Shown in pieces: positions 14,679 through 63,379 of a stretch of DNA of 64,000 nucleotides. Both the position numbers and the translations under genes were made by a program. Positions within the stretch are counted from its first letter, which is position 1; every line of letters begins with the position of its first letter. The notes under the pieces were generated by a model, which was given only the letters and a program-made list of their open reading frames with translations, was not told the origin of the DNA and made no database searches. The stretch covers positions 62,001 through 126,000 of the forward strand of contig OZ237770.1 of the NCBI GenBank assembly GCA_965178125.1, read 5' to 3'. This DNA is from Bilabrum cf. latius (taxonomy: Eukaryota).

Positions 14679-14853
14679 GTAGGGAATTCAATCCACAGAG
14701 ACCCTCTTAAATTTTATGGTTGCGGTGTAGGGGACGCTAGATGTGCGATTTGTCGAGAGATTCTAAGTGCATTGCACGGTCTTGCCAATCGAAAAGTGGA
14801 CCTACGCGAGCGATCGAGCAAAGTTTGGCACGATCAGGGGCACATCCTATGCT

Positions 14854-21892: not shown

Positions 21893-22077
21893 TTATTGTG
21901 TGATTGTGAGACTGATCATCGAACTGACTGCAATTGATACGGAGTAGACCAGATCGCCGGCGCAATCGTGCAATGAATCCGTTGGGCGAACGGACACGAC
22001 ATGATGATTGCACTTTTGTGGACCTCGTATCTCGCAATACACGTGATAGGGGACACAATTCAACTTTAAATTATATC

Positions 22078-29982: not shown

Positions 29983-30100
29983 GTTTGGAGGATATACTCA
30001 AACCAAGCCTTTTGTGAAATCAATTAGAATCTACGACGCTGTTTTGCCCGCGCATCTCTCGGTTCCGCTGCACCTCTGCGGCGCGGCGCAAATTCACTTA

Positions 30101-33100: not shown

Positions 33101-35014
33101 GTTGTGGGGGCCCTGCACGCGGGCCAGGGCGCGACGCCGCGCATCCAGGGTGGCTGTATCGACCTCTGCCAGGGAACAAGGGAGAACGTCACTGGTGTCA
33201 GCGCCACGAGGCCGCAGCAGTCCGATGCCCGCCTGCAGGAAAGCGACGTATTTGCCGCACGGGGAGGGCCTGGGGCTCCTGCTGATCACATCAAAGGGCG
33301 ACAGCACCACGGCGAGGCCCCGCGCACTCATCACACGGTAGGCCACCGCGCCGGCCTCACCCTCACCGTGACCACTCGTCACACCTCGATCAATCGTCAC
33401 ACCCTCCCCGAAGCTGGGCATCGGCACTGCCACAAGGGAGCAGGGTCGGTTGTGGCAGGCCCGCAGCCCCAGCCTCTGGCCCCGCCCCCCATTGCCCTCT
33501 CCGCCGTGGGTCCAGCCATACCCGTAGTCAGCGTCGCTCGGCTGCCTTGTTCCCAGCGCACCGCCACTGCCGTGCGATGCACCCGAGACTCCTGGTCCCC
33601 CGTATCCCAGCAGCCCGTACGCATCCAGCAGCACCCATTTCCCGCATGGACTGACTGCGGGGCGAACCGCACTCATCACATCGGACTGCGGGCATGGTGC
33701 TCCTCCGGACTACGCCCCCGATTTCCGCTCCGGATCCCCTCCGCCGGCCCCCGCATCGACCACCCCCCAAAGCCCCGGAGCCGCCACAGCCCGAGTCTCG
33801 CCCGAGAGCAGATCCAGGCAAAACACGCCCAGCCGGCAGGTGTCGCTCATTACCTCGCCCCAGGAGGCCTCGTCTTCCTAGCGGAACGTTCGTCCAGCTT
33901 CGCCGTAGGACTCGGAGCCGGTATTGCCGGTGGCGTCGGGCTTCCGCGGCTCTGCCGAGGTTCCGTCCTCCTTGCCCTTGCCTTCACTCGTCACACGACT
34001 GCTGGTCCAGATCCCCTCTCCATCGGGGGCTTCTTCGAGAAGGTCTACCGGCCCCGCTGCCTTGCCCGACAGCGCTGCGTGAGGCACGGAATAGCTCCGA
34101 TCGTTCAGGAGGGCCGCGGACCTTCGCGCCACTCCGGGCTCGAAACCCGCTACAGACAGCGACCCTGACGCCTGGGGAACATCACTCGTCATACCCCCGC
34201 TCGTCGAGTTCTGCTCGCAGAGCTCCCGCTGCGCCTCAGCCACGTACACGAGACGAGGACTCGACTCGTCCGGGTGCCAGCACAGCCCACCATAAATGCC
34301 CCCGCACACCACACTGCCGTGAAGTTTTGCACGTTTTGCAGCGGGCAATTCTCTTGACTGTGATTGGCTGGCCTTTCCTGTTGGCCGTGATGTTGCGCCG
34401 CTGCTCCCTTCTCTGCTCGTGCTCGTGGCATCGGTGGCGACGGTCTCTTCACCCGCGGGTGCTGCCACGCCCAACTTTTCATCTGAATCCGGGCAAACGA
34501 TGCTGGCCCATCCCATTTCAACCTCGCAGCACGGAGCAGCTGCCCCGCGCTCCCACAGCTGCGCCACGAACGTTGAGGCGCTGCTCCCCGAGCTGCTCGA
34601 ATCTGCCCCTGCCTTGCCAGAGCGCTTCCTGACCACTGCAAGCAAGTCACTGCTTGGTGATGGCAGAAATCCAGCGATATCGGCCCCCCAATCGGCTGCA
34701 AAGCCTCCCATAGGACTCTTCGACGTGGGCACAAACTTGGGTTGGTGAGATAGGACCTCTGGTTCCAACATGGCGTCAAACTCCCCGGGATGGGGTCGGA
34801 GAGATAGCCTACTAGACTGCACAGACTACACTGTAGTACCACGCTTTCGCCTGGAATCCCGCCAAGCATATCTCAAGACGAAATCCATATCGTTCGTCCC
34901 AGGCCTCGTTTGAATACTGTGAACGCTAGCGACTCGCGGGGGTAGACTTCGCTCCATTGCACGATAGAGCTTGGCTTCAAAACTTTTGGATACTCGTTGA
35001 TCGTTACTCGCCAT
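30101..35014 (-). CDS. S9 family acylaminoacyl-peptidase (APEH-like) with long insertions (about 1,640 aa)
   Basis: LLLYPHGGPH, NFRGSVG, GGSHGGYL (Ser), GGSDLRVPPAQS (Asp) and YPDDSHGL (His). Eight in-frame TAGs; ends TGA followed directly by TAA. Confidence 0.92.
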
Positions 35015-35076
35015 TGCCAGATCTTCTTGTGTGCGGTCGATGGATTTCGAACGAAAGTTCGTGGAATCAACGATTG

Positions 35077-36535
35077 TTGGTAATTCGAAGCGAAGGTTCG
35101 CGAAGATAGAGGGTTCTAAACGGAACTACGGCCGTTGATGCTCAGCTCAGTTGTGAGCAGAGCTATAGAGACGTACTTTGTTTCACAGTCTTTATATATA
35201 ATTCGTTAAGAAATTTAAAGTTGAATATGGAAGGTTTAGTAGCAGAAGTGCGTAGCGCTGGCCTGCAGGCTTTGCGGGACGCAGATGCGGCTACTCGCGA
35301 GTCAATCAATCAAGCCGTGAAAAGCGAGCAAATGGCCCCGCTCTTCGCGACAGACCCGTGCAATGCGCTTGTGCACTATTCCAGTACCAATATGGCGGAA
35401 GAGGCAGCGAAACACCTCGCCGCAACAGCACTCGCAGCCCTTGGTACGGCTGCGCGCGACCAACTAGCCCCGATTTTTAGGTCGTTCTTCGACAGTGGCA
35501 CGTCAAACTACGCCTCAGCGCGCATGACTTGGTGGCTTGCCTTCGGTTTTGCGGGAATGCTTCGTTCGCCTGAGAACGTCGACGTCTTCAGCGTGTGGAC
35601 GGATGATGGTCTCCCGAGCCCCGCAGGCGCGGATTCGCCAGCACAAGAGTGCTTGGCATCGCTGTACGCTTCAGACCTGTACTCCAACTTGTTTGTACCT
35701 GACATTCCGAGCGGTCTTACAGCAAAATATCGGGCTGGACTCTTACAGCTGTCGCTGACGGCGCCGTCCGCGATCGAGGCGGCGACACTTGCAGCGGCGC
35801 AGACGTCCATTTTCAACCCGGCTCCCCACCAAGGCGAGCCAGCTCCGGCGGCTCCAGGCATACCGAACTTGCCTCAAGCAGATGCCGCAGCGGGTGGGGT
35901 CGGTCAACCCCCGGCAGGGATCGAGAACGTCGCCCCAGCGGCGGTGGCTGCGGCGGGAGTTGCCGGCGACCAACCTCAGGCGGCAGCACAACAGGGACCA
36001 GGGGAAGATCAGGCTCCGGAAGGGGCAGCAGCAGAAGATGCTGGCGACCCACCGCCCCCCCCCGCCTGCATCGGGTGCGGGCATGAGCGCCGACGAGTTG
36101 ATGCCGGACTCCCCGGCTGGCAGCCCTCTCGGCTCCGAGTAGCAAAGGGCATCTCTACTCCATTTCCTATAGGTTCACTTGTAGGCTATTACGCAAGGCG
36201 ACCTCCAGACAGATCAAGTCGCCGACATTGCCACCGAACTCGGCCTGTTCAAGGGTCTGGGTACTATGGGCACCAACAGCACCGCGACTACGGTGATCTT
36301 GCTGTTGCGTCCATTGCTTCAGCACTGTGGTCACGAAGGCTCAGTGGACTTTTTCAGCGAAGCCCTACATCGGGTCGGAGACCATGTACGCAAGAGGCAC
36401 AAGCTGCGCGAGGCCTGCATCTCAGCGGGTTTCCTCGCGGCGTTCAATGAAGATAAAAACCGAAATGCCACGCCTAGTTTAGGCCCCCTAGTAGTCAACT
36501 TAGCCCCCCGAAGCATCGCACCTAGTCTCGTATGA
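35077..36535 (+). mobile_element. Left end of a second Ngaro-like copy: repeat A1 plus putative ORF1 (35227-36450 or, with a frameshift, to 36535); no RT seen
   Basis: 108-bp identity to 2079-2186, followed directly by a long ORF. A shift at the C9 run 36055-36063 leads into a TAG-containing frame ending at TGA 36535. The gag/ORF1 role is inferred from position only. Confidence 0.6.
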
Positions 36536-37162
36536 ATGCCTCACGTTGGAACTGTGCGTTTGGCAGCATCATCGCGTCAGCTAGCTCGAGTGTCACGGAG
36601 TGCGGCGTAGTACGTGGTGTAGCACCCATCTGCCACGTCTGATTCCACTGGCACTGGTTCGGCAAATACGCCCATCTTCAATTTGGACTAGTGCATCAGG
36701 GTGCAAAAGTAGATGGCAGAAGTTCTGGATATGACCGGCAATAACCAGGAAGAGGAGCTTGCCGTTCGTTCCAACCACCACCACCTCTTCATGAATGTTC
36801 GCGTGAGAATGGGTGGCGGCTTGGTGAAAGGAGAAACCGAGCGACAGCGGTGGCCAATTTGGCTGGGTGGGGATGGTGGCTGATCCGGAGCATCCGGATA
36901 CGATCAGGCCAGAGAGGGAGGGGCCGCACGAGGCAGTCCATGGCCCATTTGATTGGCTTGCTGGTGGTGCAAGCAGTGAGGTGATGTGATGTCCATACCA
37001 GCAAGAAATGCGTGCTTAACCGAATTCGTGGGCCTACATGGATTCATCCCAATAAGGTTATAAATTGGCAGTGCCCGTTGTCCTTGCTGTCAGCCGACCA
37101 TGCCATCCCAAAGAGCGACAGCTTCGAATAATCACGTGGTATCGATCGCCCGTCAAGTGGAC

Positions 37163-40100
37163 TCACTGACCCCCACTACCATGACTCTTCCGCCTTCCAC
37201 CTCTAGACTATGCACACCGCGTGGGTCTCACCGCTTTCCATGCCCTCCCGTTCCACTCGTACTCTCTCGCTAGCCCGGGCGCAGGAACCCCATGGCATCC
37301 CTTGGCCTTCATGCACTGCTTGACTACTTCGTCCTGGAATGCTTGGAACAACCGACCAATCTCCGATAGGTCTCTAGATGTTCCACCCCCTGAATCTCGG
37401 GAAGAGTTTGGCATGGCAGTGCCCAGTAGAAGCTACTCAAGGCCAGCAGTTGGCCGCTCCGATATCGACCGACCCGAAGCCTCAGGCACGTCAAACCCTC
37501 CATCGCACTGTTCCTCGCTTGCTTGATGGGGCAGCATTTTGAGTCTTCCTGACAGGTAGTCATCCTGCAGCAGCAACAGCCCGCTCTGGTGAGCGCATGC
37601 AACTGCATGTGATCCAGCCACAGACCACCGGAGGTGCAGGCCATCACGCACCAACAGGTTCATCCTGTCTTCAATACACAATAGTTGGTTCATGCCAGGA
37701 TGATCCGCAGCTCGTGCACGTCTGATCAACTACTACGGACGTAACGGAGCTTCCCAAACCTGACGACAATTAGTGGGTCTGGCAACTTCAGAGAGCATAC
37801 CGAGCAAGTGAACTGCCGTTGTCGCGCCCCTCAGGTCCTGAATGATCACTGCAATCGGCGAAGCTTCCTCGACTCCTTTGCTGCATTCCGTGCCCGAACT
37901 GCTGGAATGAGTGGCGCGTCGTATACACCGTCCCTGCTCCACTTTAAGATCAGGCACACAGCCAGTGCTTGGCTCTTGGATGTCTCCTGCATTTCCAGCT
38001 GCCCTGATGTATGCAAACTGGAGCTCGTGAGCTGCCGTATACCATCGCAGTGCACGCTAAGCTACCAGGAGTACGGCGGCCAATTGTGGCGAGCCACCGA
38101 GCACCTGTCCTACCACTGTATCCTCGTCGACAGGAGACATTGGGTCACTTCCACCCTAAAAATACCCATTATAAGTCCATTGCGATGGAACTACGCTTGC
38201 TCGCAAGAGGTCGGTGCCGGTCGTGACAGTCTATCGTGGCTCTGGATGGGACCAAGGTGAGTCAGAAGCGGATGCCTCCCCCCATGATTCCCACTGTACC
38301 GTTCGGACTGACGTAGCGAGGTCCACTGGTCGAGTAATCCGCACATACATGCCGCCATCACTCAAACGGCCACCGGGGCCATCCAAGTGCTGCAATGCAG
38401 CCGCTGCTTGATCTGGATGCACGCATCTATTGGCTTGTCGATCGCATTCATGCAGCAAAGCCCTGCCCAGACTTGCCACCATTGTTTGAACTCTAGTACA
38501 CTGTAGCTAGTACATTTTCTCAGTTGCAGCAGCCCAGCCGAGATTGAAGGACTTGTGTCGTACTGCTGGATCATTGAGTTTACGGGAGCTCTTGCTAAAA
38601 TCCGCTGCACCAACAACATCGCTCCTTCGCAGTAACTTTCGAAGCTTGTCCCTCCCTGGAACACTAATGGCTTTGGAAATACCCAGGCTGGGCCAAGGCA
38701 ACTAATAGTATGGACGAATCAGCACTGGCAGCCAGCAGGAACATGCAGGGTATCGGCTTCTCTCACACCATGCCATGAGCCCCAGCAAGTACGCGAGCAA
38801 GCAAGTGAAAAACAAACCGAGCCACATCAACGCCCAGCTGATATGAGCAATCGTGGCTACCCCATGCAGAAACATGAGCCCAAAAAGTAGCACACCTGTA
38901 CCTACAGCAGACACCAACGACAGAACCAGAGGTGGTATGCATCCGAACAACTTCGTCTCACCGGTAAGCACACGTGCCATTCTAAGCAAAGTCTTTGATG
39001 GTAAGCTCTTGTTTGAAATCATGCGCTGGTAACGCAAAAAGAGCGGAATCTACCTTGAACTGACGACTCCATCTGGCCCCGGAGAACAAACAGACAGACT
39101 CAGGCAAACGCAACAAAAGGTGACAATCGCCCAGGCAAGACCAGCATGCTACTGGAGGTTGTCTGGTGCATCAATGTAGCGCCTGACAAACTAAACAGAA
39201 ACGAGTATGATGCTTGGCGGCGACAAAAATGCGTAGATCACAATGGTGATTTTCGCTAGTTGCACCACGTGTGGCATGCGGACATGCACAGTCTCTGGTT
39301 GATCGAAGTCCCCGTTCCCCTCTCGCATGAGGGTTACTGGATCCTGTAACCTCACTCCAAGACGCATCCTGGCGAGACCCTCGCTAGTGCGACAGTCGAT
39401 CCGCTGTATGCCGCTACTGCCATGGAAGGTGAGGCGAATTTTGGCATCGTCTCGCCTGAGCTAACATAGTATCAATTCAATGATCAGTGGCACCAAGCCC
39501 AGCAAATACCACAACCAATACACGTGTGTGTTTGACGACGAAGCCTCTGTTGATACGATAAATGACATTGCAGGAGCCTACTCAGAAGGTGTGCCAGAGA
39601 GCAACAGCTCAAGCGTTGCTCCTGCTCCCATCCACGTCAGTACTGGCATCCACGACCAAATCTCTTCCTTAAAGTGCACCTGCCTGCGGAGGAAAGACCT
39701 CATTTGAAGAGTCTCAAGTATGGCTGCTATGCTTGATTCCACGGGCGAGCGACACGGCTCTGCCTTATCAGCATACTCAGAGAATGCACCAGCGATTACC
39801 GCAACTGAGGCCAGTACACCAGCTGCACACAGCGCAATCCCCTCCAACAGGCCGTCAGATCGAAGCACAATGCCCTGTGCGCCTTGGTTCTCGCCAGGGA
39901 GGGTGTGGTTCAAAGGTGAGGCTTCACAGCGCCACGGCCAGCGACTGTACACGATCAGTTGACAACCAGTGTCGCTCGACAGCAGAGGCACGGTAGTCCC
40001 AAGTACACCCATGCAAAGTTCAAACCTCGTTGCATCTACGACTGGCCCGTCCAGATCAAAGTTGGTGTGCTATTTATCGAGCCTGACACGATCAAGAGCG

Positions 40101-41895
40101 AACCGGTCCTCGTCCGACGGCTGTCCCCAGGGGCTGCACGCCAAGCGGCCATCTTGAAGGTCAGAGGTGACTAGGACCGAAGATGCGCCGTGGGAGCTTG
40201 CTGCACCATATGCACTCCTGTATCGGAGCACTGCCTCAGAAAGACCTTCCCAGTCCAGGCCTACCTGTTTATGCATTCGCTGGCACCTAGCTCGGTATGC
40301 CCCCACGCAGCCAATGAGAAAGAGGGCAAACACACCAAACGCGAACGCCAGCATGGCCGCTCCGAATTGTACCCGGGATGCACATGCGGGCCGGCAACAT
40401 ATGCGATCCATGTCTTTTAGTCGAGCTGTTCTGTTCACACGTTCCAGGTCGCGCTTCACATCGATGTCTGCCTGCCTGCATCCTGCCCAATGGCTCTGCG
40501 CGTATTGCAGCAAGCTTTCCTGGTCCTAGGATTCTGAAGTCCGTTCCAACTCGCGCTATCGATTTGTGTTGCATACGTCAAGTTCTACATCCTAAGGTGC
40601 TCCTCTCCGAATCCTCGGTGGCTTGTCAGTGAAGCCTTGGGGATCCGTACGAACTGGACTTGCTGTAGAGCCTGTATATGCGCAGTACAGCAAAGCCAGT
40701 CGATTAGTACTGATATGGCAAGGCTCCAGCGCGCGGCTCGTTTCGGAACCCCTCTCAAAGATGCGATCGGGAGCACTTGCGCCAATCATGCCGAGCGGCA
40801 CTCCGTCTGACACAATGTCCTCGCTTCGAACCTGAGTTTCCCTGGATTCCACGCCATCATCGCTGCACTTGTCACCTCGATCCTAAACACCCGGCATGTC
40901 TTCCCTCCAGTGTATCCAATCGGTCGCCTCTGAGCACAAGGTCGCTTTGGCCCCGTCTGACGCCAGAACGAGCAGCACACACTCGTGGAGTGGCATCGGA
41001 TCCGGAGCCATTGGAGATTGTATACTGGTTGATCCCTCATTATTGGATCTCGCAGCGAATGACTTGGATGGAACTGCACCAGTGGTCTCGTTTTCCTCGC
41101 CGGTGCTGGAAACACGCCGACAAGGACTATCGCTAGTACCGTTGCTTGCATCATCGACCGGCTCGTCGGCCTGCTCGATGAGGCGCATCCTCTCAACCCA
41201 ACAGCGCTCTTCGACAAGGTCATCACCATCACGTATGATAGTCTTGGCTGCCCGCGCCTCATCCTCTTCCCGCTCCTTGGTAGGGTCTGACAGCACGCAA
41301 GCAGCCCTGAGGGACTCACCCACGAAAATGCTCGCCTGCAACTGAGCCGCGCGCAACACCACCTTGGCCCAGTCGGTCTGCATGCCAGATTTGGAGCGAA
41401 TCTGTGTGGCAAGCTTTGCACTGCCAGTTTCGGAATTGCGCGATGCCCGTGATGCTCCGCATAGTGCTGCAGCAGCAGCCTCCTCGAGCCCTAGCGCTGA
41501 AGCCAGGCCTCTTGGCCCTTCGACTTGACCAACTGTCGCAATTGCATCCTAAATGAGCCCAGTCTCCGACTGGCGCAGCTTTGCACAGCTGCTATTCCCA
41601 GTGCCAGCGGACTGGAACAGGGCTTGTACCTGCGGACTGCGCAAAGCGCGAAAGTTACGCATGCAACTCTCTGCTTCCGCGAGCCATCCCCCAAGGGCTA
41701 TTCCATGACCGATTGCATACTTGCTCGGGTCATCACCAGCCTGCACGATTCGCTGGACACACTGAGAGACGAGAGCCTACCTTTCCATTTGAGATCTGTC
41801 CACTCCTTGGCACGCTGTCCATGTTGCTTTCGAGGCTTGCTCGAGTGATTCAAAATCTCTCAAATGCAGGAATTGGGACACAGTCTTTAGTACGC
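37163..41895 (-). CDS. Multi-pass membrane protein of unknown function (main exon about 1,575 codons; probable upstream exon beyond 42005)
   Basis: At least 11 short track ORFs share one frame with about 20 TAGs and no TAA/TGA for 4.7 kb. Several hydrophobic segments. TGCAG acceptor at 41896 and GTAAG donor at 42005. Confidence 0.8.
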
Positions 41896-44800
41896 CTGCA
41901 TTCACTCAAGAAATCTTACAGTACTAGACGGGAGCAATGTGCAACAGCCAAGGCAGTGCACTCAGGGCACGAACATCCTGCGAAGGCCACCTTCATCTTA
42001 CTTACGATAATTGCTTGATACAACGTGGCTAAGTGCCATTGTTACGCTCAGCCGGCGTCCGTGTGAGTGGGTTTGCTTGTTTTGCAATGTTTGTTGGGAC
42101 GCCTCCAGAAATACAGAAATAAATCTACAGAAATACATTGTTGGCTCCCGGGACTTAAGTTGTACGGTGCTGTTTGGCTCGAGAAAATCTTGGTTCCATT
42201 TTGAGCGGCGCCTCAGTGCGCGCCTGGTCCACGAAAACTGGGGTTGATGGCTTGCATATAATCCTTTTAATATATTTATTGTGGTCGCTGTTGCATTTAT
42301 GTACTAAATGAGAACTGTATTGAGAAAACTGGCAAGCTTGCAAATCGCGGATCGGCACGTGAGCACTTTTTTGCTGTTTCCGGGCGTTCCAATAATAGCT
42401 GCAAAAAGGCCCAAAGGGTGTATCTTCGAAAGCCTAGTTTAAGTAGATTGATGCGGATTGTCTGCGGTTATGCGGAGAAACCGCTTGCACTGCACGTGTA
42501 GACTGCCAGGCTGCAGCGGCTTGTGGACCGCTTCAGGAACTCGCTACTCACGATGTATATTCCATGGTCGTTCGCATAATTTGATTATTGTTTGTTCATT
42601 TAGTCTGAAACTATCGTTTGAATTGAATCAGACACGCAAGTAGGCGTGCAGCGGCCTTGGAAGGTGGGGGGCTTGAACGACCTGCCAAGACGCCTACTTT
42701 CGGCTCGCCCTCTTTCGAGCCAGAGTACCCCATGCATCAAGCTAGCAACCCTGGTGTTTTTATACTATAGATTTCTGTTCTTTCGGCGAGTTTGGGTCGA
42801 TTCTGTTTTGGGCCAATGTGGCTTCTGCGCGATAGTCCGAGGGCGTATTCGCCAAACTGGGATTTTCTTTTATTGCGGGTAGCTCCCACAATCGTTGCTT
42901 GATGCCGATGCCAATTCACCATTCACATTTTTACCGAATTCATTACCTGATTTCCGATTGCAGCGCAATTTTGAGGATACGAAGCCCTGAAACGAGTCCT
43001 AGCGAGCTGAGGCGCCATGGCAGCGGCCTCCTCTTCTGACCATTTGAGCGATGCCTGCCGCTACCAGAGGCCATCATTGAATCAATTAGCAGTGGAAATA
43101 GTTACCTTGACTGCTCAACTGCTTGCTGCCAGCGAGTGAGAGCAAGCTCGCACGACATCCGGAGATTCGGGCAAAGCCGACAGACGGTCATCGACATTAC
43201 GACTAGATGATCTGATCAAGGCTGCTTTTAGAAATAGAGAATTTATCGCTCGGGACCTGATCGTCGACGATTGCAGCATAGGCCCTGTCAGGAACGTATT
43301 ACGCGTAGCAGGGCTTGGTGGCGGCCTGCCCTTGGGACGATGAGCTGAGCCGACGTGGCCAAGTCGCTGTTTTAGTTTTGCAACAGCCGGAACTCCAGTT
43401 CGTCACTTGGCATAGATGTAACTCGTGCTATACTTGCTAAACGGTATGAAATGGTCTTTAGAATATTCCAGGCATTGGGAGGCAAAATCAACGGTGCTAG
43501 CAAGTCGAGCAGCAGGGCTGCCGGCATCGTCCCAGCCTAGATCCTTTCAGCAGCAGGAGCTGCCGCCCGCATTCTCATCGGTGCAAGTCTCGAGGCGTCA
43601 TGGGTTAAGGACGTAATCGACATGGAGGAGAAAACCATGGAATCTATGGGTGCCCACCTATTGAGCCCAACAAGTACGCGTGGCCAGAATTGCGTCGCCA
43701 GACTTGCTGGGCCTAGCCAAGGTTCAAGGACCGGAACTGCATAGATGCAACGGTGCCAAGGCTGGCGGAAGTCCAGGCCTGGTATCATCATTGGAAGGTT
43801 TGTTTGCTAGGATCGTAGAATCCCAGCCAGAAGTTGTTGCCCCAGCGGCACCGCCACCAGCCCGCTCGTCGTCGTCATCATCCGGGGCATCAGCTGCACA
43901 TAGGCCCGTAGCACCGAGATTCAATCAGCTCATAGACAAGCGAGCAGGGCCTGGGCGAAGGCTGGAAAGAGTATCTTTTCACAGGGACAGGGGAGGGCGG
44001 CGGCACCCTCCTCTAGCTTTAGCTCTGCCAGTGCGTTTGGTCCATCTAGAGCTAGTAGCCTGTCAAGTACTGCGGACTAGACGCCAACAAGCGGTACTGG
44101 ATTAGAAGACGAAGACAATTAGCAGCCACCAGAGGTGAAGTAGAGCGGCGCACAGGCCGAGCAGGTGCAGGGCGGCGCGGGCGGAGCCGCAGCAGGGTTT
44201 GGCCCGGAGGAATTCAGTGTAGAGGAAATTAAGAACATATTGATCCCAACAGACATGGTTCATGGCTCCGATAGAAGGACCAGGCAGGCAGGGATGGTCA
44301 GCGCTGACCAGAGCGGTGAGTATGATGGTGCAACATCGCTTGGGCTGAGATCAATCTTGGGCAGGCGAGACAGCCATAGACGGTAGCCACGACCATCGCA
44401 TAAGCTGCGGTAGTGATATGCGCGGCGGAGGCAGAGAAATGACAGAAAGGAGTTGCGGATCACTGCAGCGAGCATGCTGCCTGCCGGCCACCACCAGTGA
44501 CATGATATCATGTGCAAGTCAGCCGGTGTATGATATTAAAAATATTCCAAAAGTACGACTCCGTCTCTCTATTATCCATTATTTGGCTTGTAGAAGGCAT
44601 ACATGGCGAAAATGTTGTCGGCACGTTGCTGTCTGTATTGTCTTCCCTGGCCCGTACCGCGCAACTCAAAACGTTCCGGAACTTTTGCAGCTGGTAAAAC
44701 GATTTTGAATGGGCATTATTATATAATTGTGCGAACAATCGCAGACCGCTTAAACCGCGTAACGATGAAATCTGCCGAGCCATGGAGGTGTGTGCGAAAT

Positions 44801-46682: not shown

Positions 46683-47978
46683 GTGCACCCCTGTCGCATG
46701 AATTTATACAAGCTTGTTGAGGACGTAGGCGGCCTTGGCACTGCTGAAGTTGGCATATATGTGGCAAGGGGCGTAATCCGAGCGCTGGCATTGATGCACA
46801 AGCGGAATCGCGCTCACAAGCACCTGAGGCTGGAATCGGTTAGAATCTCAGAAGAGCAGACTATCGAGATTCAGGTTTCGCCCTCTTTTAGGCCAGGCCA
46901 AAGCGGCCATACAGACGGTACGCGAGCCTACACTGCCCCAGAAGGAACGGAGGGGAAGCATCACGATCCAATCAAGGCCGACATGTGGAGCCTTGGCGTA
47001 CTGCTATGCTGCATGGTAATGGGAAGGCCCCCCTGCGGCAAAGCGGACGAGTCCGATCCTTACTTCCGTGTTATCAAAGCAAGGAGCATCACAGGGATGG
47101 ACGAGTTCTGGGCCGATCATATTCGGAAGTGCAAAATTCGGATTCGATTCGACTGGGATACTGCTCGGTTCCAGTCTCTAATTGTAGGGCTTCTGCGAGT
47201 AGATCCAAGCCGACGCCTCAGCATGCAGGAAGTGTTGGATCACCCATGGGTGTGCAGTGCGTGCCCCCTAGAAGACCACTGCAGAGGCTACTTGTAGGAG
47301 GCGTGCAAGCGACTAGCTGGCCCTACCGGAGGCTCTGAGGATGGCCATATTATGGACGATTAGAATTTTGGAGCCGCTGCCGGCGGGGCTTCGACGTCTG
47401 CCGCAAGTTCAGGCTATGCGATAGGGCAGGCACCAGCGTCACAGCGTGCTCGTGGACCTGCTGCAAAGGTGCAGGGAGTTCCTAGAGCTCCGATAGAAGA
47501 TACCGGAGTCATTCAGTCAGGTGATAGGGGCGGTCAGCCTGAGCCAGTCGACAGCAAGTGCGCTGGCATTAGGGCTAAGCCTGATGCACACGGCGGGAAA
47601 TTGCAACGGCTGGGGTCGAACGCAGGCATGCTACCAGAGGCAGACGTGCAAGAGCGTGGCAGGAGCCCGGAAGTGCCTGGTGGCGTACCCCAGAATCAAT
47701 TGTTGATGCGATGTCCATCGTGCAGCCTGAGATAGCTTGCTGCCGAGCAGCAGGATGTGCTTATACACCAAGAGATGCGTTGTATTGAGTGCGGCTAGCA
47801 GCTGAAAGCAAGCCGGAGTTCTTCAGCGGTGGGCTCAAACCAACTCGACCCGTGTCACGATGCAGATGAGCAAATCGAGGTAAGTGCAGAGGATGACACG
47901 AGTAAGGAAAAACGCGAAGACGAGGGCGTAACAGCAGTCGACAGCGAGGATGAAGACGAGGACGAAGTCGAGCATTAA
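46683..47978 (+). pseudogene. Kinase-like paralogue 1, degenerate; 5' part unresolved
   Basis: GTRAYTAPE, ADMWSLG and LDHPWVC are present, but HRD has become HKH and there is no DFG. The acidic tail continues past TAA 47976 and a TGA. Confidence 0.6.
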
Positions 47979-51426: not shown

Positions 51427-53183
51427 ATGGCATTAGCGGATACATTCCGATCAGTCAGCACGGATATATTGCTGTTTGGTGATATTTATTCGGTGCTCTG
51501 TGTCAAACCTCTCGGATCCTAGCTAGTATTTGGAGCTCTTGGGTATCCCGGCTAGAAAAATTGCCGCATGTTCACTGGTACGGAATGCGTTCCAGCAAAC
51601 AGAGGAGGCCAGCGCAATCTTGACAAATTGATACATTTATCAAGCCGCCTGAAAGGCGCGCCTCACATTTGCAAGCCATCCGTGAGACAGCCATTGGCTC
51701 CTAATATTCTTGAAGCCACCGAGTGACATAGCAATGATACATAAGTCGCCTTTCCAAGCCTCCCTGTCCGTAAATTTCGATGTTTTAGGACATCCTGGTA
51801 AAGCATACCACAAGGAGCGGCAGACGCATCGCCATGGTGCCATACGAGCCGACCCAGCAGCCAAGCGCGTTCGACATAGTGTCTGCGTTGGGCGGCCTTG
51901 GCACATCTGGCCTTGTGACACACATTGCCAGGCAAGTCATTCTTGGATTGCAAGCATTACAACGAGCGGATGTAGCGCATCGGGACATTAAGCTGCAGAA
52001 CGTGCGGCTGAACCTGGACTATGACTGCGTGCTTGGTGGATTGGAGTATGCTGAACCAACACACGACAGTGGTCATCGGCCGCGAGTGACAAAGAATCCA
52101 GGCGGCACTAAGACATCGAGTCCTCCAGAGTTCTCAGATGGCCAGGCGCACTCGCCGGTGGTGGCAGACATGTGGGCCTTCGGTATCCTGCTCTTCGCTC
52201 TTGCGGTCGGTCGGCCGCCGTTCCGGGTCCCTGATCCGGAGCGTGACGATTGGTACAAACTGTACACGCACAAAGACAAGGTGGTGCGTGACTAGTTTTG
52301 GTCCCGGCACATGAAGGCATCCCGCATCAAGATTGACGCGCACGCGGCCCAGTTCCGCAGCTTGACCGAGGGACTGCTCAACCCGGACCCGATGCGACGA
52401 CTATAGCTGCAGGCGGTGATGAAGCATCCATGGGTGTGCGCGACGTGTCCCAGCCAGAAGATATGCCGGGGGCTGCTGACGGCGATGTGCGAAACGGTAT
52501 TGAGCGTGCGGGAAAGCCAGATGCTCAGTGTTCGACCTTTAGGTCTTGACGGGTACACAGGGATGCTGAGAGTTCATGGAACGACATAGAAACCGGGAGC
52601 ACAGCTGGGCAGATCGGGAACCCGAGGTGAAGTTGGTGCAGGAAGGCCTGCAGAAGGCCTAACGAAGGCAAGTCGCAGCGTAACGAACCATAAAAAACCG
52701 TCGCATCTGTCATGTGGTCTGGATGGCAGCGCCTGCGAGGCGGAAGGACGCGGGACTGAGAGATCTACCCGTATCCGTGGATCTACAGATGGTGCGGCTG
52801 CCTCTACACGTGCGGGTACAGATGGTGCGGCTGCCTCTACACGTGCGGGTACAGATGGTGCGGCTGCCTCTACACGTGCGGGTACAGATGGTGCGGCTGC
52901 CTCTACACGTGCGGGTACAGATGGTGCGGCTGCCTCCACACGTGCGGGTACAGATGGTGCGGCTGCCTCCACACGTGCGGGTACAGATGGTGCGGCTGCC
53001 TCTGGCGGTGCTGCATCTTCAGGTAGCGCTGGCTACCACCAGTCACGAACAGAGGGACAAGGGGCCGGAAGCGGCAACGGTCCCGGCAGTAGCTGGATAC
53101 AGTCTATGCAAGGCCTTGGAAGACATGATAGCGATGAGGAGTGTGATAGTCCGAAGGATTATACCCATTGGCTGGACATGTGA
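51427..53183 (+). CDS. Kinase-like paralogue 2; intron 51682-51788
   Basis: HRDIKLQN, GTKTSSPPE, ADMWAFG and KHPWVC. Five TAGs; stop TGA. Confidence 0.8.
52784..53002 (+). repeat. 33-bp coding tandem repeat, about 6.5 copies (TDGAAASTRAG)
   Basis: Directly visible. Confidence 0.93.
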
Positions 53184-53650
53184 ATAGTTTAGGCCAAGGC
53201 AACGTGAGTCATACGTGTAGCCTCTAGAGGAACCGGCGTTCGTGATGCTGGTGAAGTACCAAGGCAGCACTGCCTGGGACATATGGATCTATACTACGCG
53301 CGCGAGAAACCGGTTTGACCGTAGCCTCGCTGTGCTCAATAGCCTCACTCGTACTTGCTATCATGCGGTCGTGCACATTTCCGCCATACCATCACTCGAT
53401 TGGATTGTGTCGAGCCAGGCAGCCGCGATTGCGTTTAGGATGGACAGTATATGCAAGGCCGCAGTGGGTTGGGGTAGAGGCGAGTATTGGCAATGGGCAT
53501 GGATGGATGGACAGGCATATGGTCACATGCTGGTGAGTAAACTTGGACGTCAGGGTTGAAGCGACGGGGAGCAGAGGGGATCTAGACATTGACATAGGCA
53601 CCGATGGACATGAGGTGGAGAAGGACAACAGGCAGACACCAGCCCAGGCG

Positions 53651-53736
53651 ACGATAGTGCGGTGTCAATGGGAGAACACAGCGCGGGCTGCACGGCCAGC
53701 AGCACGCAGAAGAGGCCAGTAGGCGGATGGATGGAT
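53651..53736 (-). repeat. Dispersed repeat, inverted homologue of 61684-61814
   Basis: Its reverse complement shares ttgacaccgcactatcgt and ggcc.tgcagcccg with 61684-61814. Confidence 0.75.
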
Positions 53737-54511
53737 GGGAAGTATTGCAGGCCATTAAAGGTGCAAGCCCCTCGTTGGTGAGGCCAGCAAGGTCTCTGAG
53801 ATTGAGGTCGCTCGGTGGGCGCAGGGCCCGCTCGAGGTGCAGGAGCAGATGCGACGTAGCGATGCGGAGGAGTGAGAGAGAGAGCGGCTAGGGAGGGGAG
53901 GTGCAGGGGTGGGGTGGGGTGGCGAATGGGGTGGGATGGGCGAATGGAAGGGGTTGCGGAGGGCAGAGCGGAGGGAGAGGGACGACGGTTCACCGGAAAG
54001 GGGGAGGAAGTAGTGAGGAGAAGATGATTGGTGGGATCGGGTTGATGCGGCGGATTGGAAGGGGGAGGCACATGCCGGGGAAGTGGGGGATTTGGGCATG
54101 TGTGTGACGAGTGACTCGGATCAGGGGGATCGGATCACCCGACCATATGCGGATGTGGAAGTTGAGAGGTCACAATTAAACTCGAGCGGCAATCAAGCCG
54201 CGTGCTATTCGGGAGCTGAGGGGCAGTGCTCGCCAGACTTCTTTTGGTAGATCAACAGACGCAGCCCAGGGCGCTCTTTCTTCATGGGGCTGTATTTTGC
54301 CGTACATATGTTTACACTGATTTCTTTATTTTCACTGACTCTATATTGTTGTTTTCCCCCCACTACGGGCACCTTGGTAGTCTAGCTCCTATGCTCAGTA
54401 GCACTCCACGTAATTCTATCCAGGATCCGGATCCTACTACTAGTAGTAGTAGCACTAGGGATGCAGTAGGCACACTCCAGCCAGTTTTTCCTGGTTGGCT
54501 CTATTTGAACC

Positions 54512-57119
54512 ATGGCAGCAATGCATGCTTTTCGATCCATCTGTTCTGATATAAATGTATCTGGTCAAACCTACTCGGTACTTCGTGTCCGTCCTCTCGG
54601 TTCCCAGCTGCCAGTGGTAGTTGGAGCTCTTGGGAGTCCAGGATAGTATATTGTTCGTGTATTTACTGGCACGGAATGCGCCCCGGCGTACAAAAAGGGG
54701 CGATGGAAACTTGATAAATTAATTCGCTTATCAAGCTACCTGAAAGCCGTGCCTCACATTTGCAAGCCATCCGTGAGACAGGCGCAAGATGCGGCATTTG
54801 GATTGATCATGCCAACATGCGCCCGCAGAATTCTGCAATATGTTTGCCGAATGATTCATACTGCAGAAACATTTGGTGAAACACGAGACAAGGAGCGGCA
54901 GACATATCGCCATGGTGCCATACGAACCGACCAGGCAGCCAAGTGTCTTCGACATAGTATCTGCTTTGGGTGGCCTTGGCACATCTGGCCCAGTGACACA
55001 CATTGCCAGGCAAGTCATTCTTGGATTGCAAGCATTACAACGAGCGGATGTAGCGCATCGGGACATTAAGCTGCAGAACGTGCGGCTGAACCTGGACTAT
55101 GACTGCGTGCTTGGTGGATTGGAGTATGCTGAACCAACACACGACAGTAGTCGGTAGCCGCGAGTGACAAAGAACCCAGGTGGCACCAAAACATCGAGTC
55201 CTCCAGAGTTCTCAGATGGCCAGGCGCACTCGCCCGTGGTGGCTGACATGTGGGCCTTTGGAATGCTCCTCTTCACGCTTGCTGTCGGTCGGCCGCCGTT
55301 CCGGTTCCCTGATCCCGAGCGCGACGATTGGTACAAACTCTACACGCACAAAGACAAGGTGGTGCGTGACTAGTTTTGGTCCCGGCACATGAAGGCGTCC
55401 CGCATCAAGATGGACGCGCACGCGGCCCAGTTCCGCAGCCTGATCGAGGGACTTTTGGATCCATGCCCGATGCGACGACTACAGCTTAAGTCGATGATGA
55501 AGCATCCGTGGGTGTGCACGGCATGTCCCAGCCAGGAGATATGCCGGGGGCTGCTGGCGGCGATGTGTGATAGGGTCTCGAGCATGCGAGAGCGTAGTCA
55601 GAGGCGGGGGATGAGAGGAGGAATGGACCCCGAGATGGGAATGGTAGATGCCAAACAGAAGTTGCGTGATGGAGCTGCTGGTACGGGTAATGCTAACCAC
55701 AAGGGCACTGCAGCTGTTCGCCATGATAAGGGTGTTGCTGATGGCCATGGCAAGTTCGCTGGTGTTGGTCTTGGCCATGGCAAGGGTGGTGCTGATGGCC
55801 ATGGCAAGGTCGCTGGTGTTGGTGATGGCCATGGCAAGGGTGGAGCTGATGGCCATGGCAAGGTCGCTGGTGTTGGTGATGGCCATGGCAAGGGTGGAGC
55901 TGATGGCCATGACAAGGTCGCTGGTGTTGGTGATGGCCATGGCAAGGGTGGTGCTGATGGCCATGACAAGGTCGCTGGTGTTGGTCTTGGCCACGGCAAG
56001 GGTGGAGCTGATGGCCATGGCAAGGTCGCTGGTGTTGGTGATGGCCACGGCAAGGGTGGTGCTGATGGCCATGGCAAGGTCGCTGGTGTTGGTGATGGCC
56101 ATGGCAAGGGTGGTGCTGATGGCCATGGCAAGGTCGCTGGTGTTGGTGATGGCCACGGCAAGGGTGGAGCTGATGGCCATGGCAAGGTCGCTGGTGTTGG
56201 TGATGGAGACGGCAAGGGTGGTGCTGATGGCCATGACAAGGTCGCTGGTGTTGGTGATGGCCATGGCAAGGGTGGTGCTGATGGCCATGACAAGGTCGCT
56301 GGTGTTGGTGATGGCCATGGCAAGGGTGGTGCTGATGGCCATGACAAGGTCGCTGGTGTTGGTGATGGCCACGGCAAGGGTGGTGCTGATGGCCATGACA
56401 AGGTCGCTGGTGTTGGTGATGGCCACGGCAAGGGTGGTGCTGATGGCCATGGCAAGGTCGCTGGTGTTGGTGATGGCCATGGCAAGGGTGGAGCTGATGG
56501 CCATGGCAAGGTCGCTGGTGTTGGTGATGGCCACGGCAAGGGTGGTGCTGATGGCCATGACAAGGTCGCTGGTGTTGGTGATGGCCATGGCAAGGGTGGT
56601 GCTGATGGCCATGACAAGGTCGCTGGTGTTGGTGATGGCGACGGCAAGGGTGGTGCTGATGGCCATGGCAAGGTCGCTGGTGTTGGTCTTGGCCACGGCA
56701 AGGGTGGAGCTGATGGCCATGGCAAGGTCGCTGGTGTTGGTCTTGGCGACGGCAAGGGTGGTGCTGATGGCCATGACAAGGTCGCTGGTGTTGGTGATGG
56801 CCATGGCAAGGGTGGTGCTGATGGCCATGGCAAGGTCGCTGGTGTTGGTGATGGCCATGGCAAGGGTGGTGCTGATGGCCATGGCAAGGTCGCTGGTGTT
56901 GGTCTTGGCCACGGCAAGGGTGGAGCTGATGGCCATGACAAGGTCGCTGGTGTTGGTGATGGCGACGGCAAGGGTGGTGCTGATGGCCATGACAAGGTCG
57001 CTGGTGTTGGTGATGGCCCTGGCCAGGGTGGAGCTGATGGCCATGTGAAGGTCGCTAGTGTTGGTATTGGCCATGGCAAGGTCGCTGGTGTTGTACTTGG
57101 ACCCACGGGCATGCCGTGA
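54512..57119 (+). CDS. Kinase-like paralogue 3 with Gly/His-rich repeat tail; intron 54773-54866
   Basis: Same motifs and intron position as paralogue 2. TAGs at 54644, 55155 and 55371; stop TGA. Confidence 0.82.
55740..57090 (+). repeat. 54-bp coding tandem repeat, about 25 copies (DGHGKVAGVGDGHGKGGA)
   Basis: Directly visible. Confidence 0.95.
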
Positions 57120-57994
57120 CTTTGGCAAGATTGGGTTGATTGGGGCAGGGATTGGTGCTGACGCTAGTAGAGCCGGTGTTGGCGCTGGTACAGCCGGTGC
57201 TGGCGCTAGTGCTGGTGCAGATGAATCAGTGTTGATGCAGATGAGCCTAGCGTTGCGGTTGGTCCATGCGCTAGCTGTGAAACTGAAGGCACGCAGATAA
57301 CCAGGTTTGGTACCTATGAGTCAGGTAGGGCAGGCTCTAGGGCAGGCAACGGAGCTGGTTTTCGCTGATACAATGACCTACTGTTCGAACATCTGGTGAA
57401 ACTGGGCGAGGGAGCAGCCGGACCAAACTTGTCACAGGTTGATCATGTTATCTGAGAGTACGAGGCCTGAGATGCAGGAATCGAGCGCCCCGTTGGATCC
57501 GGATTGTAGGTAGACGACTGTGCACTGACCATCCGTATCAGATCCGGATTCCGGATGCCGCTCGACGTTTTGGTGGCTGCTGTATTGGTCTACATAGTGG
57601 TATTAAGGAGACAGAGTCTGATTCGTTGTTGACGTCAAATGAGATGATAAGCGTCTGTGCGATGAGGATGGCTCTGCGAAGAAGGAAAACGCGGCAACAC
57701 CTTGTCCGTCGAGGAATTGTAGCGTTAGACATCGTAATTCTGAAGAGGCAGGCCACGAAGAGTGGAAGTTGGCGTTCCTCCAGTCAATCGCCTCCATTCG
57801 AGGTGGAAGAGATAATGACTGATATCATCTTAATTTTTTTCCCAGCCCGTTCGGGCCCGGAGAATTCGTCGTGTGTTTCCGCTGGTGGACGAATCCATCG
57901 GTTTCAATAGCACTAGGATTCATACGGAAATCGAAATACGGAAGGAGTAGCACTACAACCGGACCAATCATTCCTATTTCCCTCTGCTTGAGCC

Positions 57995-59568
57995 ATGGCA
58001 ATCACGGACGCATTTCGATCGGTAAACACGGATATTATTTTATCTGGTGATACCTGTTCGGTGCTCCACGTGAAACCTCTCGGCTCGCAGCTGGTGGTAG
58101 GAGCACTCGGGTATCCCGGGTAGAAGAATATCCGTTTGTTTACCGGCACGGAATGCGTCCCGGAATGCAAAGGGGGGCAGCGTAATCTTGATAAATTAAT
58201 ACATTTATCAAGTCGCTTGCAAGGCGCACATCACATCTGTAAACCATCCGTGAGAGACCCAAATACATTTTCGCAGTCGGTTTGGTCACCTGCTTAGGCG
58301 CAGTCTCTTCGTCTTATGTACCTGATCTGTCTATTTTGCAGAAGACTGTCGAAAAGCATACCACAGAGAGTGGTAGACGAATAGCCATGGTCCTATACGA
58401 GCCAATCCAGCAGCCAAGCGTGTTCGACATAGTATCTGCTTTGGGTGGCCTTGGCACATCTGGCCTTGTGACACACATTGCCAGGCAAGTCATTCTTGGA
58501 TTGCAAGCATTACAACGAGCGGATGTAGCGCATCGGGATATTAAGCTGCAGAACGTGCGGCTGAACCTGGACTATGACTGCGCGCTTGGTGGATTGGAGT
58601 ATGCTGAACCAACACACGACAGTAGTCGGTAGCCGCGAGTGACAAAGAACCCAGGTGGCACCAAGACATCGAGTCCTCCAGAGTTCTCAGATGGCCAGGC
58701 GTACTCGCCCGTGGTGGCTGACATGTGGGCCTTTGGAATCCTGCTCTTCACTCTAGCGGTCGGCAGGCCGCCGTTCCGGGTCCCTGATCCCGAGCGTGAC
58801 GAGTGGTACAAACTCTACACGCACAAAGACAAGGTGGTCCGTGACTAGTTTTGGTCCCGGCACATGAAGGCATCCCGCATCAAGATAGACGCTCATGCGG
58901 CCCGATTCAGAGACCTGATCGAGGGACTCGTGTTGCCCGACCACAAGCGACGACTACAGCTGCAAGCAGTGATGAAGCATCCATGGGTGTGCACGACGTG
59001 TCCCAGCCTGGAGATCTGCCGGGGGTTGCTGACGGCGATGTGCGATAGGGTCTCGAGCATGCGAGAGCGTAGTCAGAGGCGGGGGATGAGAGGAGGAATG
59101 GACCCCGAGATGGGAGCGGCAGATGCTGGTAAGGGTGATACCGATCATGATGGTGCTGCTGGTGGCCATAAGGGCGATAGGGTATCAAGTGTGCGAGAGA
59201 GTCGTCAGAGGCGGGGGATGAGAGGAGGAATGGACCCTGAGATGGGAGTGGTAGATGCTGGTAAGGGTGATACCGATCATGATGGTGCTGCTGGTGGCCA
59301 TAAGGGCGATAGGGTATCAAGTGTGCGAGAGAGTCGTCAGAGGCGGGGGATGAGAGGAGGAATGGACCCTGAGATGGGAGTGGTAGATGCTGGTAAGGGT
59401 GATACCGATCATGATGGTGCTGCTGGTGGCCATGATAAGGGCATTCCTGCTGGTGGCCATGATTAGGGCATTGCTGATGGCCATGGCAAGGGTGGCCCTG
59501 GTGGTCTTGGCAAGGGTGGCCCTGGTGGTCTTGGCAAGAAGGCTGCTGCTGGAAATGGTCCGAAATAA
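57995..59568 (+). CDS. Kinase-like paralogue 4; intron 58250-58341
   Basis: Same motifs and intron. TAGs at 58121, 58630, 58846 and 59464; stop TAA. Confidence 0.82.
59044..59433 (+). repeat. 132-bp coding tandem repeat x3
   Basis: Units start at 59044, 59176 and 59308. Confidence 0.92.
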
Positions 59569-62134: not shown

Positions 62135-63379
62135 ATGCCAGTTGAATTCGCGAATCAAGCTGACATCTATGCGTCAAAGAGTCCCATTTGGGATGGCTCT
62201 GGCGGAATACGTGCAGAAATGGTACAGGATATACAGCACAAGTCTCGCGACCTATTTACAGGACACATTCCAGCATGTGGAGAGAAGTGGCACCAAGAAA
62301 TCCTTGTTGCCACTGGAGATGCCGTAATTACTGCTGTGAAAAGGCGCATGATTGCTGTCAGACTTGGATAGCATGCCAATATCTAGCAAACCACTGTAAG
62401 GTAGTCTGGCCAAATCCGTTTCGCTACGTGTAAGTCCCGTTCACTATGCGTGCGTGCAGCGACAAGTACTTACTTATTAATTTTGCAGGGCTATTGTCTC
62501 GAGTACAAGGGAAAGCCAGCGAAGGTAGTCGTATTTGCTCCAGAACGTAAAACAGACCTGTTCTCGTTGGTGAGCAAATGTGGGGGCTTTGGTACTGTAG
62601 GTGTTTCAATTCATGTAGCACGAGAAATCATCCTTGCGCTTGATCATGTGAATAGGCGTCAGATTGCGCACCGTGACATCAAGCTGGAGAGCATCGCATT
62701 GGGTGAAGCAGGAAATATTGTGCTGAGCAATTTCATTTACAGCATTCCAACCCATGATGGCAAAATGTGCCCGCTCACCACGAAGCTGAGGAGCGGAACT
62801 AAGGCCTATGCAGCGCCCGAATCTCTAGCGGGGGCGGCGCACAACCCAGTGACGGCCGACATGTGGAGCCTGGGAATGCTGCTATTCTGCCTGGTCATGG
62901 GGAGGCCGCCTTGCCGCGTGGCCGACGATTCGGACAAGTGGTTCCGCGTGCTGAAGCGCAAGAACAAGAGGGAGATGGACGAGTTCTGGACTAAGCACAT
63001 GCGGGCCTCTAGAATCAAAATCGACGCGCACGCCGTGCACTTCCGGTCACTGATCGAAGGGCTGCTGGAAGTAAACCCCCTGCGTCGCTTGCAGATGCAG
63101 GCTGTCAAGAAGCACCCGTGGGTGTGCACGGTGTGTCCGCCGATCGACACGTGCAGGGGCATGATCGTTAAGATGGCAGAGAGAATCGAGCGACGGCGCA
63201 GCAGTGCTCCAAAGAAGCCAGCAGCAGCGCCCAAGCAGGGAGGCGTGGGCATCGCCGCCCCTCGAGAGGGCGGACAGAAGCGGGTGGTAGTGACAAAGGC
63301 TGCCACTTCAGGGCAATGCGGCCGGCCCCCTCATATAACGGTGGCACGAAAGGTAAAACAGCCGGCCATGGCCCAATAA
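62135..63379 (+). CDS. Kinase-like paralogue 5; intron 62396-62488
   Basis: HRDIKLES, GTKAYAAPE, ADMWSLG and KHPWVC, with DFG replaced by NFI. Intron at the homologous position. TAGs at 62369 and 62384; stop TAA. Confidence 0.85.

Follow-up and report, generated by a model that had tools for sequence, protein, structure and literature searches.

UAA and UAG nearly always change meaning together, and the nuclear exceptions are few, according to the available parts of PMC11687900 and PMC5304391. Closest to the case described here are nuclei that follow NCBI table 15, in which UAG codes for glutamine (Gln) and UAA and UGA remain stops. These are Iotanema spirale, a fornicate in which UAG is likewise set apart from UAA (PMC5304391, in part), and the ciliates Hartmannula sinica, Trochilia petrani and Protocruzia tuzeti (PMC11687900, in part); the accessible text of PMC9161772 covers the same list of users. 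As far as the available portions of PMC11687900 and PMC5304391 go, the decoding tRNA was not found in these UAG-only Gln cases. Here we analysed a window of 64,000 nucleotides (contig C36:62001-126000 of a 48.6-Mb assembly of 111 contigs), which contains a tandem array of kinase-like paralogues. An initial annotation had noted that these paralogues exchange TAG and CAG at homologous codons, implying that TAG means Gln and leaving glutamate (Glu) possible. Our analysis indicates that TAG is almost certainly a third, minor Gln codon of the nuclear genome, with TGA (mostly) and TAA remaining stops, as in table 15.

TAG across the nuclear genome

Throughout the genome, reading frames tolerate TAG; in alignments it behaves like CAG and CAA, and it is unchanged in spliced contigs. 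On the sequence evidence, drawn from contigs longer than 0.5 Mb, the recoding is a genome-wide code and not peculiar to the kinase paralogues. In 10-kb stretches at 19 dynein heavy-chain loci, comprising 61,982 codons, TAG occurs in frame 270 times, beside 2262 CAG and 391 CAA. TAA does not occur a single time in these codons, and TGA is likewise absent inside the frames. Eleven of the 19 stretches are open for all 3333 codons, seven stop at the dynein C-terminus and one is broken at a probable intron. Essential genes that carry TAG without TAA or TGA include eRF1 and Prp8 (one genome match each) and dynein-2 (one clear orthologue, with 48 TAGs).

Alignments were then used to assign an amino acid. 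Against 120 database homologues, dynein-2 showed Gln at seven of the nine TAG columns conserved to at least 90%, with log-likelihoods (lnL) of +19.2 for Gln and -19.2 for Glu; as a control, 61/61 sense codons were called correctly. A second test compared the organism's own dynein paralogues in columns with at least 10 rows, for which 157 of the 270 TAGs qualify (dynein-2 belongs to both sets). Gln stood at 12/13 TAG columns conserved to at least 80%, and over the 157 sites lnL was +104 for Gln, -39 for lysine and -41 for Glu, again with all 61 control codons correct. For 185 TAG sites from the dynein paralogues plus 20 of the 120 homologues, the mean column profile correlated with that of CAG (r 0.99) and CAA (0.98), as compared to 0.46-0.48 for the Glu codons and -0.14/-0.17 for the tyrosine (Tyr) codons. 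Among the best 30 of 95 kinesin matches (31 TAG), Gln was found at 8/8 conserved TAG sites (control 61/61), and among the best 30 of 43 DEAD helicase matches (also 31 TAG) at six of seven (control 57/61). In tyrosyl-tRNA synthetase (TyrRS), a TAG replaces the Gln of the GSDQ motif, which is Gln in the three structures shown. TAG makes up 1-25% of the Gln codons, its share being higher as the GC content at third codon positions (GC3) is lower (rho -0.84).

The reading as Glu, left possible by the initial annotation, can be addressed with the count of exchanges among the 19 dynein paralogues. Opposite TAG, CAG was enriched 4.75-fold and CAA 3.81-fold over background, as against 1.59-fold for GAG and 0.83-fold for GAA, so that TAG-GAG exchanges do not dominate; CAG itself stands opposite GAG 1.7-fold. 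Among consensus residues other than Gln, Glu is the most frequent at TAG columns (8/34 at a conservation of at least 60%), and two further observations discussed below, the D*FW column of the kinase-like paralogues and parts of a candidate decoding tRNA, also point in its direction. On the other hand, Glu accounts on average for 11.4% at TAG columns, close to the 11.1% at CAA/CAG columns and far from the 30-31% at GAG/GAA columns. Moreover, none of the 15 conserved kinesin and DEAD sites is Glu. With these values and the dynein likelihoods, the chance that Glu is the main meaning of TAG becomes practically negligible, and the Gln part of the earlier proposal stands.

The genome is GC-rich with TGA-dominant stops (GC content of the window 51-67%), and 65 long coding-like frames end with TGA in 59 cases and with TAA in six. 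A dual code, with TAG as Gln inside genes and as a stop at some ends, like in Condylostoma or Blastocrithidia, would be consistent with the retention of T32, E55 and S70 in eRF1. In the mitochondrial TyrRS, a TAG four codons ahead of the terminal TGA could be such a stop. For TAG and CAA, the last 30 codons give 12/11, and codons 31-300, further in, give 52/66. This difference in ratio is small, comprises few codons and gives no clear excess of TAG before terminal stops. Furthermore, the seven dynein C-termini end with TGA (six) or TAA (one) and carry no TAG in their last 15 codons, and 17/17 tails of proteasome-family proteins and synthetases reach TGA without TAG, one of them probably running into an intron. 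Overall, we consider a dual meaning unlikely. The code of table 6, in which UAA and UAG (UAR) both mean Gln, was rejected, TAA not being a sense codon in the window or in the dynein frames.

Some individual sites weigh against the assignment to Gln. Both alignable TAGs of Prp8 stand opposite conserved residues of another kind, proline (116/116) and histidine (119/120), one TAG of the mitochondrial TyrRS is opposite Phe/Ala, and a second TAG in eRF1 falls at L69, which is Leu in 113/117 homologues. A comparable scatter is found for CAG itself, with Gln at 6/11 CAG columns conserved to at least 90%.

Candidate decoding tRNA and release factor

An Rfam search was carried out, in which 63 of 780 candidates were scored. 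A tRNA with the anticodon CUA lies at C23:907607-907679 on the minus strand; it is a single-copy nuclear gene and folds as a perfect cloverleaf (z -2.7). Pattern searches for a UUA tRNA gave 47 hits; of these, about 20 different candidates were checked, none being a tRNA with this anticodon, and the remainder were mostly copies of one repeat. By wobble rules, the anticodon CUA reads only UAG (available part of PMC11687900). This tRNA would decode UAG but not UAA, and UAG would be uncoupled from UAA because of this restriction. The pattern search also brought up, on more than 20 contigs, a dispersed repeat whose core of 29 bases is identical, and a second such repeat was seen.

The CUA tRNA was compared with a set of 31 further nuclear tRNAs, in which 18 amino acids are represented. 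Arg-ACG, Asp and Trp came into this set through pattern searches, which did not bring up tRNAs for His or Leu. The nearest was tRNA-Tyr(GUA), with 41/59 identical bases overall and 20/24 in the stems (acceptor 12/14, anticodon stem 8/10), as against 36/59 (stems 12/24) for Gln-CTG and 32/59 (stems 6/24) for Gln-TTG. Both molecules share the same 5-base variable loop and are the only ones among the 32 tRNAs that start with C1-G72. Among 444 unrelated tRNA pairs the stem score reached at most 17/24. Thus, tRNA-Gln is not the nearest genomic relative, and the likeness to Gln and Glu tRNAs is limited to the D-stem, which resembles those of Gln-UUG and Glu. The anticodon loop (A37, C38) together with the D-arm resembles tRNA-Glu, and base 73 is G, in contrast to the A of tRNA-Tyr.

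From these comparisons we lean slightly towards an origin of the CUA tRNA from tRNA-Tyr(GUA) with a switch of identity from Tyr to Gln; otherwise, it would be a strongly diverged derivative of a Gln, Glu or His tRNA, or a chimera. Against the Tyr origin it has to be considered that the whole-molecule value of 41/59 is reached by 6 of the 444 unrelated pairs, that the stem comparison was chosen after the sequences had been seen, and that the His and Leu tRNAs are missing from the set. If the Tyr origin holds, which is less certain than the decoding itself, tRNA-Tyr(GUA) would have become a suppressor by G34C and would have escaped TyrRS by A73G. In the available part of PMC9976931, eukaryotic TyrRS is described as requiring C1-G72 and A73, and E. 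coli glutaminyl-tRNA synthetase (GlnRS) as readily charging amber suppressors, with amber derivatives of tRNA-Trp, -fMet and -Ser accepting Gln. The two ordinary Gln tRNAs of the organism have only 9/24 stem bases in common and differ at base 73, and therefore its GlnRS can presumably rely on the acceptor stem only to a small extent. Such a GlnRS, tolerant of acceptor-stem sequence, may charge the CUA tRNA with Gln.

The retained Tyr determinant C1-G72, limited to these two molecules, raises the question of an ambiguous code, in which TAG would be mostly Gln and partly Tyr; the mitochondrial TyrRS site opposite Phe/Ala would agree with this. The protein alignments, in contrast, show no Tyr signal at TAG. 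The aromatic share was 2.4% at TAG columns, 2.2% at CAA/CAG columns and 57% at Tyr-codon columns, no aromatic excess being detected at the 185 TAG columns (P 0.33). Opposite TAG, TAC (0.51-fold) and TAT (0.12-fold) are depleted, and the A73 that TyrRS requires (PMC9976931, in part) is G in the suppressor. We therefore regard a mixed Gln/Tyr meaning as very unlikely.

Several partial or unusual tRNAs were also encountered. At C1:271855-271894, a short way upstream of the complete gene, there is a 3' half of tRNA-Tyr. Fused to other sequence, 5' halves of tRNA-Lys occur at C1:248646 and C7:26334-28091; these copies are possibly tRNA-targeting insertions. A family of tRNAs labelled Met-CAT (L023, L039, L041, L047-L049) has stems like tRNA-Pro(TGG), some with mispaired acceptor ends.

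On the side of termination, the eRF1 gene lies on contig C35, with predicted introns, and ends with TAA. Its first TAG is at Q44, which is Gln in 117/117 homologues. Beside the GTS loop, five changes (A27T, G29A, N30D, I35V and S60V, human numbering) introduce residues that are found in 0 of 108-117 homologues. Recognition of UAG by eRF1 may be weakened by these changes together with the replacement of L69 by Gln. Counting against this view, four deviations at columns conserved to at least 95% are equalled or exceeded by 7/117 homologues. In yeast, readthrough is increased by L69A slightly more at UAG than at the other stops, and N30A is without effect (available part of PMC4381064); because of this mild and absent effect, the role of the eRF1 changes is put forward as a hypothesis. 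The synthesis of eRF1 itself would require two TAGs to be read, and the release factor would therefore depend on the new code. Autoregulation via these TAGs is not claimed, as they are 2 of 16 Gln codons in a low-GC3 part, an ordinary rate. No close relatives of this eRF1 were found among 79 metagenome loci (best 72%), where the 76/76 readable ones had TASNIKS. A search of viral contigs gave one match, at 32%.

Kinase-like paralogues and long frames in the window

The tandem array consists of five kinase-like copies on the plus strand, additional paralogues being found on contigs C9 and C36. Copy 2 (51427..53183, exons 51427-51681 and 51789-53183) encodes 549 amino acids and stops at TGA; in its spliced frame, TAG, predicted to be Gln, occurs at 51520, 51553, 52293, 52404 and 52587. 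Copy 3 (54512..57119, exons 54512-54772 and 54867-57119; 837 amino acids, stop TGA) has TAG at 54644, 55155 and 55371, and copy 4 (57995..59568, exons 57995-58249 and 58342-59568; 493 amino acids, stop TAA) at 58121, 58630, 58846 and 59464. More distant are copy 5 (62135..63379, exons 62135-62395 and 62489-63379; stop TAA), with TAG at 62369 and 62384 in spliced contigs, and copy 1, a kinase C-lobe frame at 46698..47978 (stop TAA) with TAG at 47295, 47361, 47733 and 47796; both carry DEFW. In PF00069 searches, which included copy 1, copy 2 matched with E 7e-19 and copy 5 with E 1.4e-24.

When the sequence was re-read, all 12 codons of the initial annotation were found at the positions and in the contexts it had given. 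TAG 51520 is opposite CAG 54605 and CAG 58088 (GS*L/GSQL), and TAG 52404 opposite CAG 55482 and CAG 58957 (RRL*L/RRLQL). PG* is TAG in all three copies 2-4 (51553, 54644, 58121), as is D*FW (52293, 55371, 58846). Its caution about Glu at D*FW was well placed, since this column is GAG in four of six more distant paralogues and GTG in two; it is an ordinary Glu/Gln substitution. To these we add TAG 55155 and TAG 58630, both opposite CGG in copy 2, and the in-frame tail TAGs 52587 and 59464. The intron acceptor of copy 2 (51786-51788) also reads TAG, with CAG in copies 3 and 4, and is a splice site, not a codon. Exchanges among the three copies thus amount to two TAG/CAG, one TAG/CGG and no TAG/GAG. 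Taken alone, this count is suggestive but not decisive, as a C-T transition could give it by chance; it is the remainder of the genome that provides a signal exceeding chance.

GT..AG joints at 51681>51789, 54772>54867, 58249>58342 and 62395>62489 were detected in contigs of runs X1-X3 from two studies, the copy 2 intron (51682..51788) being joined in X1 and X2. In contigs of run X4 the joints are unspliced. The RNA nature of X1-X3 was judged solely from these joints, no run being recorded as RNA. With TAG as sense, joining the exons gives frames from ATG to stop without TAA or TGA in 3/3 copies (2-4), and dN/dS (nonsynonymous to synonymous substitution rates) was 0.10-0.34 for both exons in 6/6 comparisons. 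Because of the spliced joints, complete frames and low dN/dS, copies 2-4 are taken to be coding. They appear to be ordinary tandem duplicates under purifying selection, among which the exchange of TAG and CAG would be silent. TAG 51520 as a splice acceptor was ruled out, as the intron seen in the contigs extends from 51682 to 51788 and purifying selection acts on exon 1.

A standard code, with the TAGs edited out of the RNA or the copies being pseudogenes or assembly errors, was weighed on the same contigs. TAG 54644, 58121, 58630, 62369 and 62384, as well as all four in copy 1, are unchanged in spliced contigs, with 0 other letters (58121 in spliced contigs from two studies, those of X3 also covering 58630). 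For none of the 12 sites is a differing letter listed in the run contigs, 51520 and 51553 lying outside the listed spliced contigs. Contigs hide rare or minority variants, so that editing at a low level would be masked, which speaks against our interpretation, and in copy 1 the N-terminal part is not open. Together with the low dN/dS, the presence of the CUA tRNA and the TAGs of eRF1, Prp8 and dynein-2, the spliced contigs leave a vanishingly small chance for this explanation, and we retain the reading of TAG as Gln.

Copies 2-4 have an HRD motif, the DFG position is GLE, and exon 1 is without a Pfam match. By the usual features of active Ser/Thr kinases (DFG, a recognisable N-lobe) they are predicted to be pseudokinase-like. 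An ESM Atlas search returned generic kinase clusters only. Exon 2 (51789-52500, 54867-55578, 58342-59053) has a synonymous divergence (dS) of 0.29 with windows of up to 98-100% identity, as compared to 0.8-1.2 for exon 1; because exon 2 is so much more alike between the copies, the sequences suggest gene conversion. The tails differ per copy, with in-frame tandem repeats of 33 bp x 6.7 at 52784-53003 in copy 2, 54 bp x 25 at 55720-57081 in copy 3 (Gly/His/Lys/Asp-rich) and 132 bp x 3 at 59042-59433 in copy 4. Upstream of copy 1 (46186-46675), two introns are spliced and no open frame leads from those exons into the kinase lobe, the part being either a truncated gene or a spliced 5' untranslated region. 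Over copy 5, spliced transcripts in antisense orientation are hinted at by two CT..AC joints (62330-62777).

Elsewhere in the window, five frames of 1508-1682 codons appear when TAG is read as sense, the maximum being 917 codons under the standard code. Reading TAA (maximum 917) or TGA (955) as sense gave no gain and was discarded. Observed/expected stop counts in these frames are circular for TAA and TGA and were not used. The five neighbouring genes in 9704..41905, which reach 1500-1680 codons only with TAG as sense, are a TBC/rhodanese gene (9704-14251, minus strand), a long-frame gene (17369-21892, plus), a RING-like gene (24961-29997, minus), a peptidase S9 gene (30101-35146, minus) and another long-frame gene (37163-41905, minus). 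At 3-2400 lies a frame with a 33-amino-acid repeat, whose end we take to be reverse-transcriptase-like (no Pfam hit); a segment is common to positions ~2100 and ~35100. Both regions (3-2400 and 34633-36450) are probable mobile-element remnants.

Placement of the organism and comparison with known codes

For phylogenetic placement, a query-anchored dynein-2 alignment (2055 columns, 45 of the 120 homologues; one gene with a long branch) was used, support values being those of FastTree and SH-aLRT (a likelihood-ratio branch test). FastTree grouped the organism with Cafeteria roenbergensis and three further proteins in one clade (support 1.0). IQ-TREE gave the same topology with 22 rows (SH-aLRT about 98-100, the label placement after rerooting being approximate), and the Cafeteria grouping was retained with 18 rows without other long branches. 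The eRF1 tree gave no resolved placement, and searches with Prp8 and eRF1 left the taxon undecided. In the mitochondrion TGA is read as Trp, with a UCA tRNA, as do bicosoecid mitochondria (available part of PMC6723347); this fits bicosoecids but is not unique to them. Altogether, for this single-celled eukaryote a bicosoecid (stramenopile) affinity beside the marine flagellate Cafeteria is very probable. The dynein-2 of Cafeteria and its tree neighbours are uninterrupted predictions of 4196-4434 amino acids. If these were predicted with the standard code, the code change would have occurred on the organism's own branch.

The mitochondrial contig (C111, 38.4 kb, 24% GC, TGA=Trp) has genes that end with TAA. 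ARAGORN finds only 10 tRNAs on it, which implies heavy tRNA import. Two different 18S genes were found, at C95:6099-7900 and in the C12 ribosomal DNA array (1802 and 1700 nt, 77-83% identical); the first, on a 17.9-kb contig, is probably from a second, minor co-assembled eukaryote.

The TAG=Gln code is probably unreported for stramenopiles. No report of a stramenopile nuclear UAG change was found in the literature searched, which is largely without subscription papers, and term searches in the accessible text of PMC11412368, PMC6723347, PMC8345874, PMC11008856, PMC5447177 and PMC12153298 returned none. Those who deposited the genome may be aware of the code already. Opalina may use UAR=Gln, and no paper with those terms was found. 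What appears to be new is the lineage, the GC-rich and TGA-dominant setting and the finding of a candidate decoding tRNA whose stems resemble tRNA-Tyr; the table itself is known. Tentatively, and with rather less confidence than in its parts, this could be both the first stramenopile nucleus with a UAG-only change and the first natural change to Gln via a converted tRNA-Tyr (G34C, A73G, Gln-like D-arm), in a GC-rich, TGA-stopping genome with a code-dependent release factor. As the code, tRNA, GlnRS, TyrRS and eRF1 are together in one 111-contig assembly, with Cafeteria as a probable standard-code relative, the genome allows to test how a eukaryote drops the UAG stop yet keeps UAA, and whether a code change can go through a tRNA identity switch. 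Annotation with table 15 is needed, otherwise many genes are truncated. A recoded host may also be relevant to the giant viruses and virophages by which this group is infected.

In comparison with Iotanema, where UAA is the main stop and eRF1 carries T32G, TGA is the main stop here and T32 is kept; for Iotanema there was only the prediction of a tRNA, derived from tRNA-Gln(CUG), whereas here a CUA tRNA with Tyr-like stems was found (PMC5304391, in part). In the case of the three ciliates, both phyllopharyngeans stop mainly with UAA, and no suppressor tRNA was detected in these two, according to the available part of PMC11687900. Other UAG-only changes lead to Leu in the rhizarian exLh and in TARA ciliate metagenome-assembled genomes and to Ser in Scotinosphaera, and the ciliate PL0344 uses UAG=Glu and UAA=Lys (available parts of PMC5304391, PMC11687900 and PMC10553269). 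In the portions available, these UAG-only systems likewise split UAG from UAA, reading it with a CUA tRNA where one was found, and L69 of exLh eRF1 is Ala. Their suppressors are most like tRNAs of the inserted amino acid, in contrast to the Tyr-like tRNA here, which would insert Gln. Table 6, used by Tetrahymena, ulvophytes, hexamitins, oxymonads and Amoeboaphelidium (PMC11687900, in part), has UAG=Gln in common with this genome. In table 6 UAA is also Gln, whereas TAA is a stop here, ending eRF1 and one dynein and being absent from the dynein codons counted above. A further parallel is the E. coli tyrosine amber suppressor su3/supF, whose acceptor-end mutants insert Gln. The likeness lies in the charging by GlnRS of a tRNA that has G73 and a CUA anticodon on a body other than that of tRNA-Gln. 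Those are laboratory mutants of a bacterium, whereas the present case would be natural, fixed and eukaryotic.

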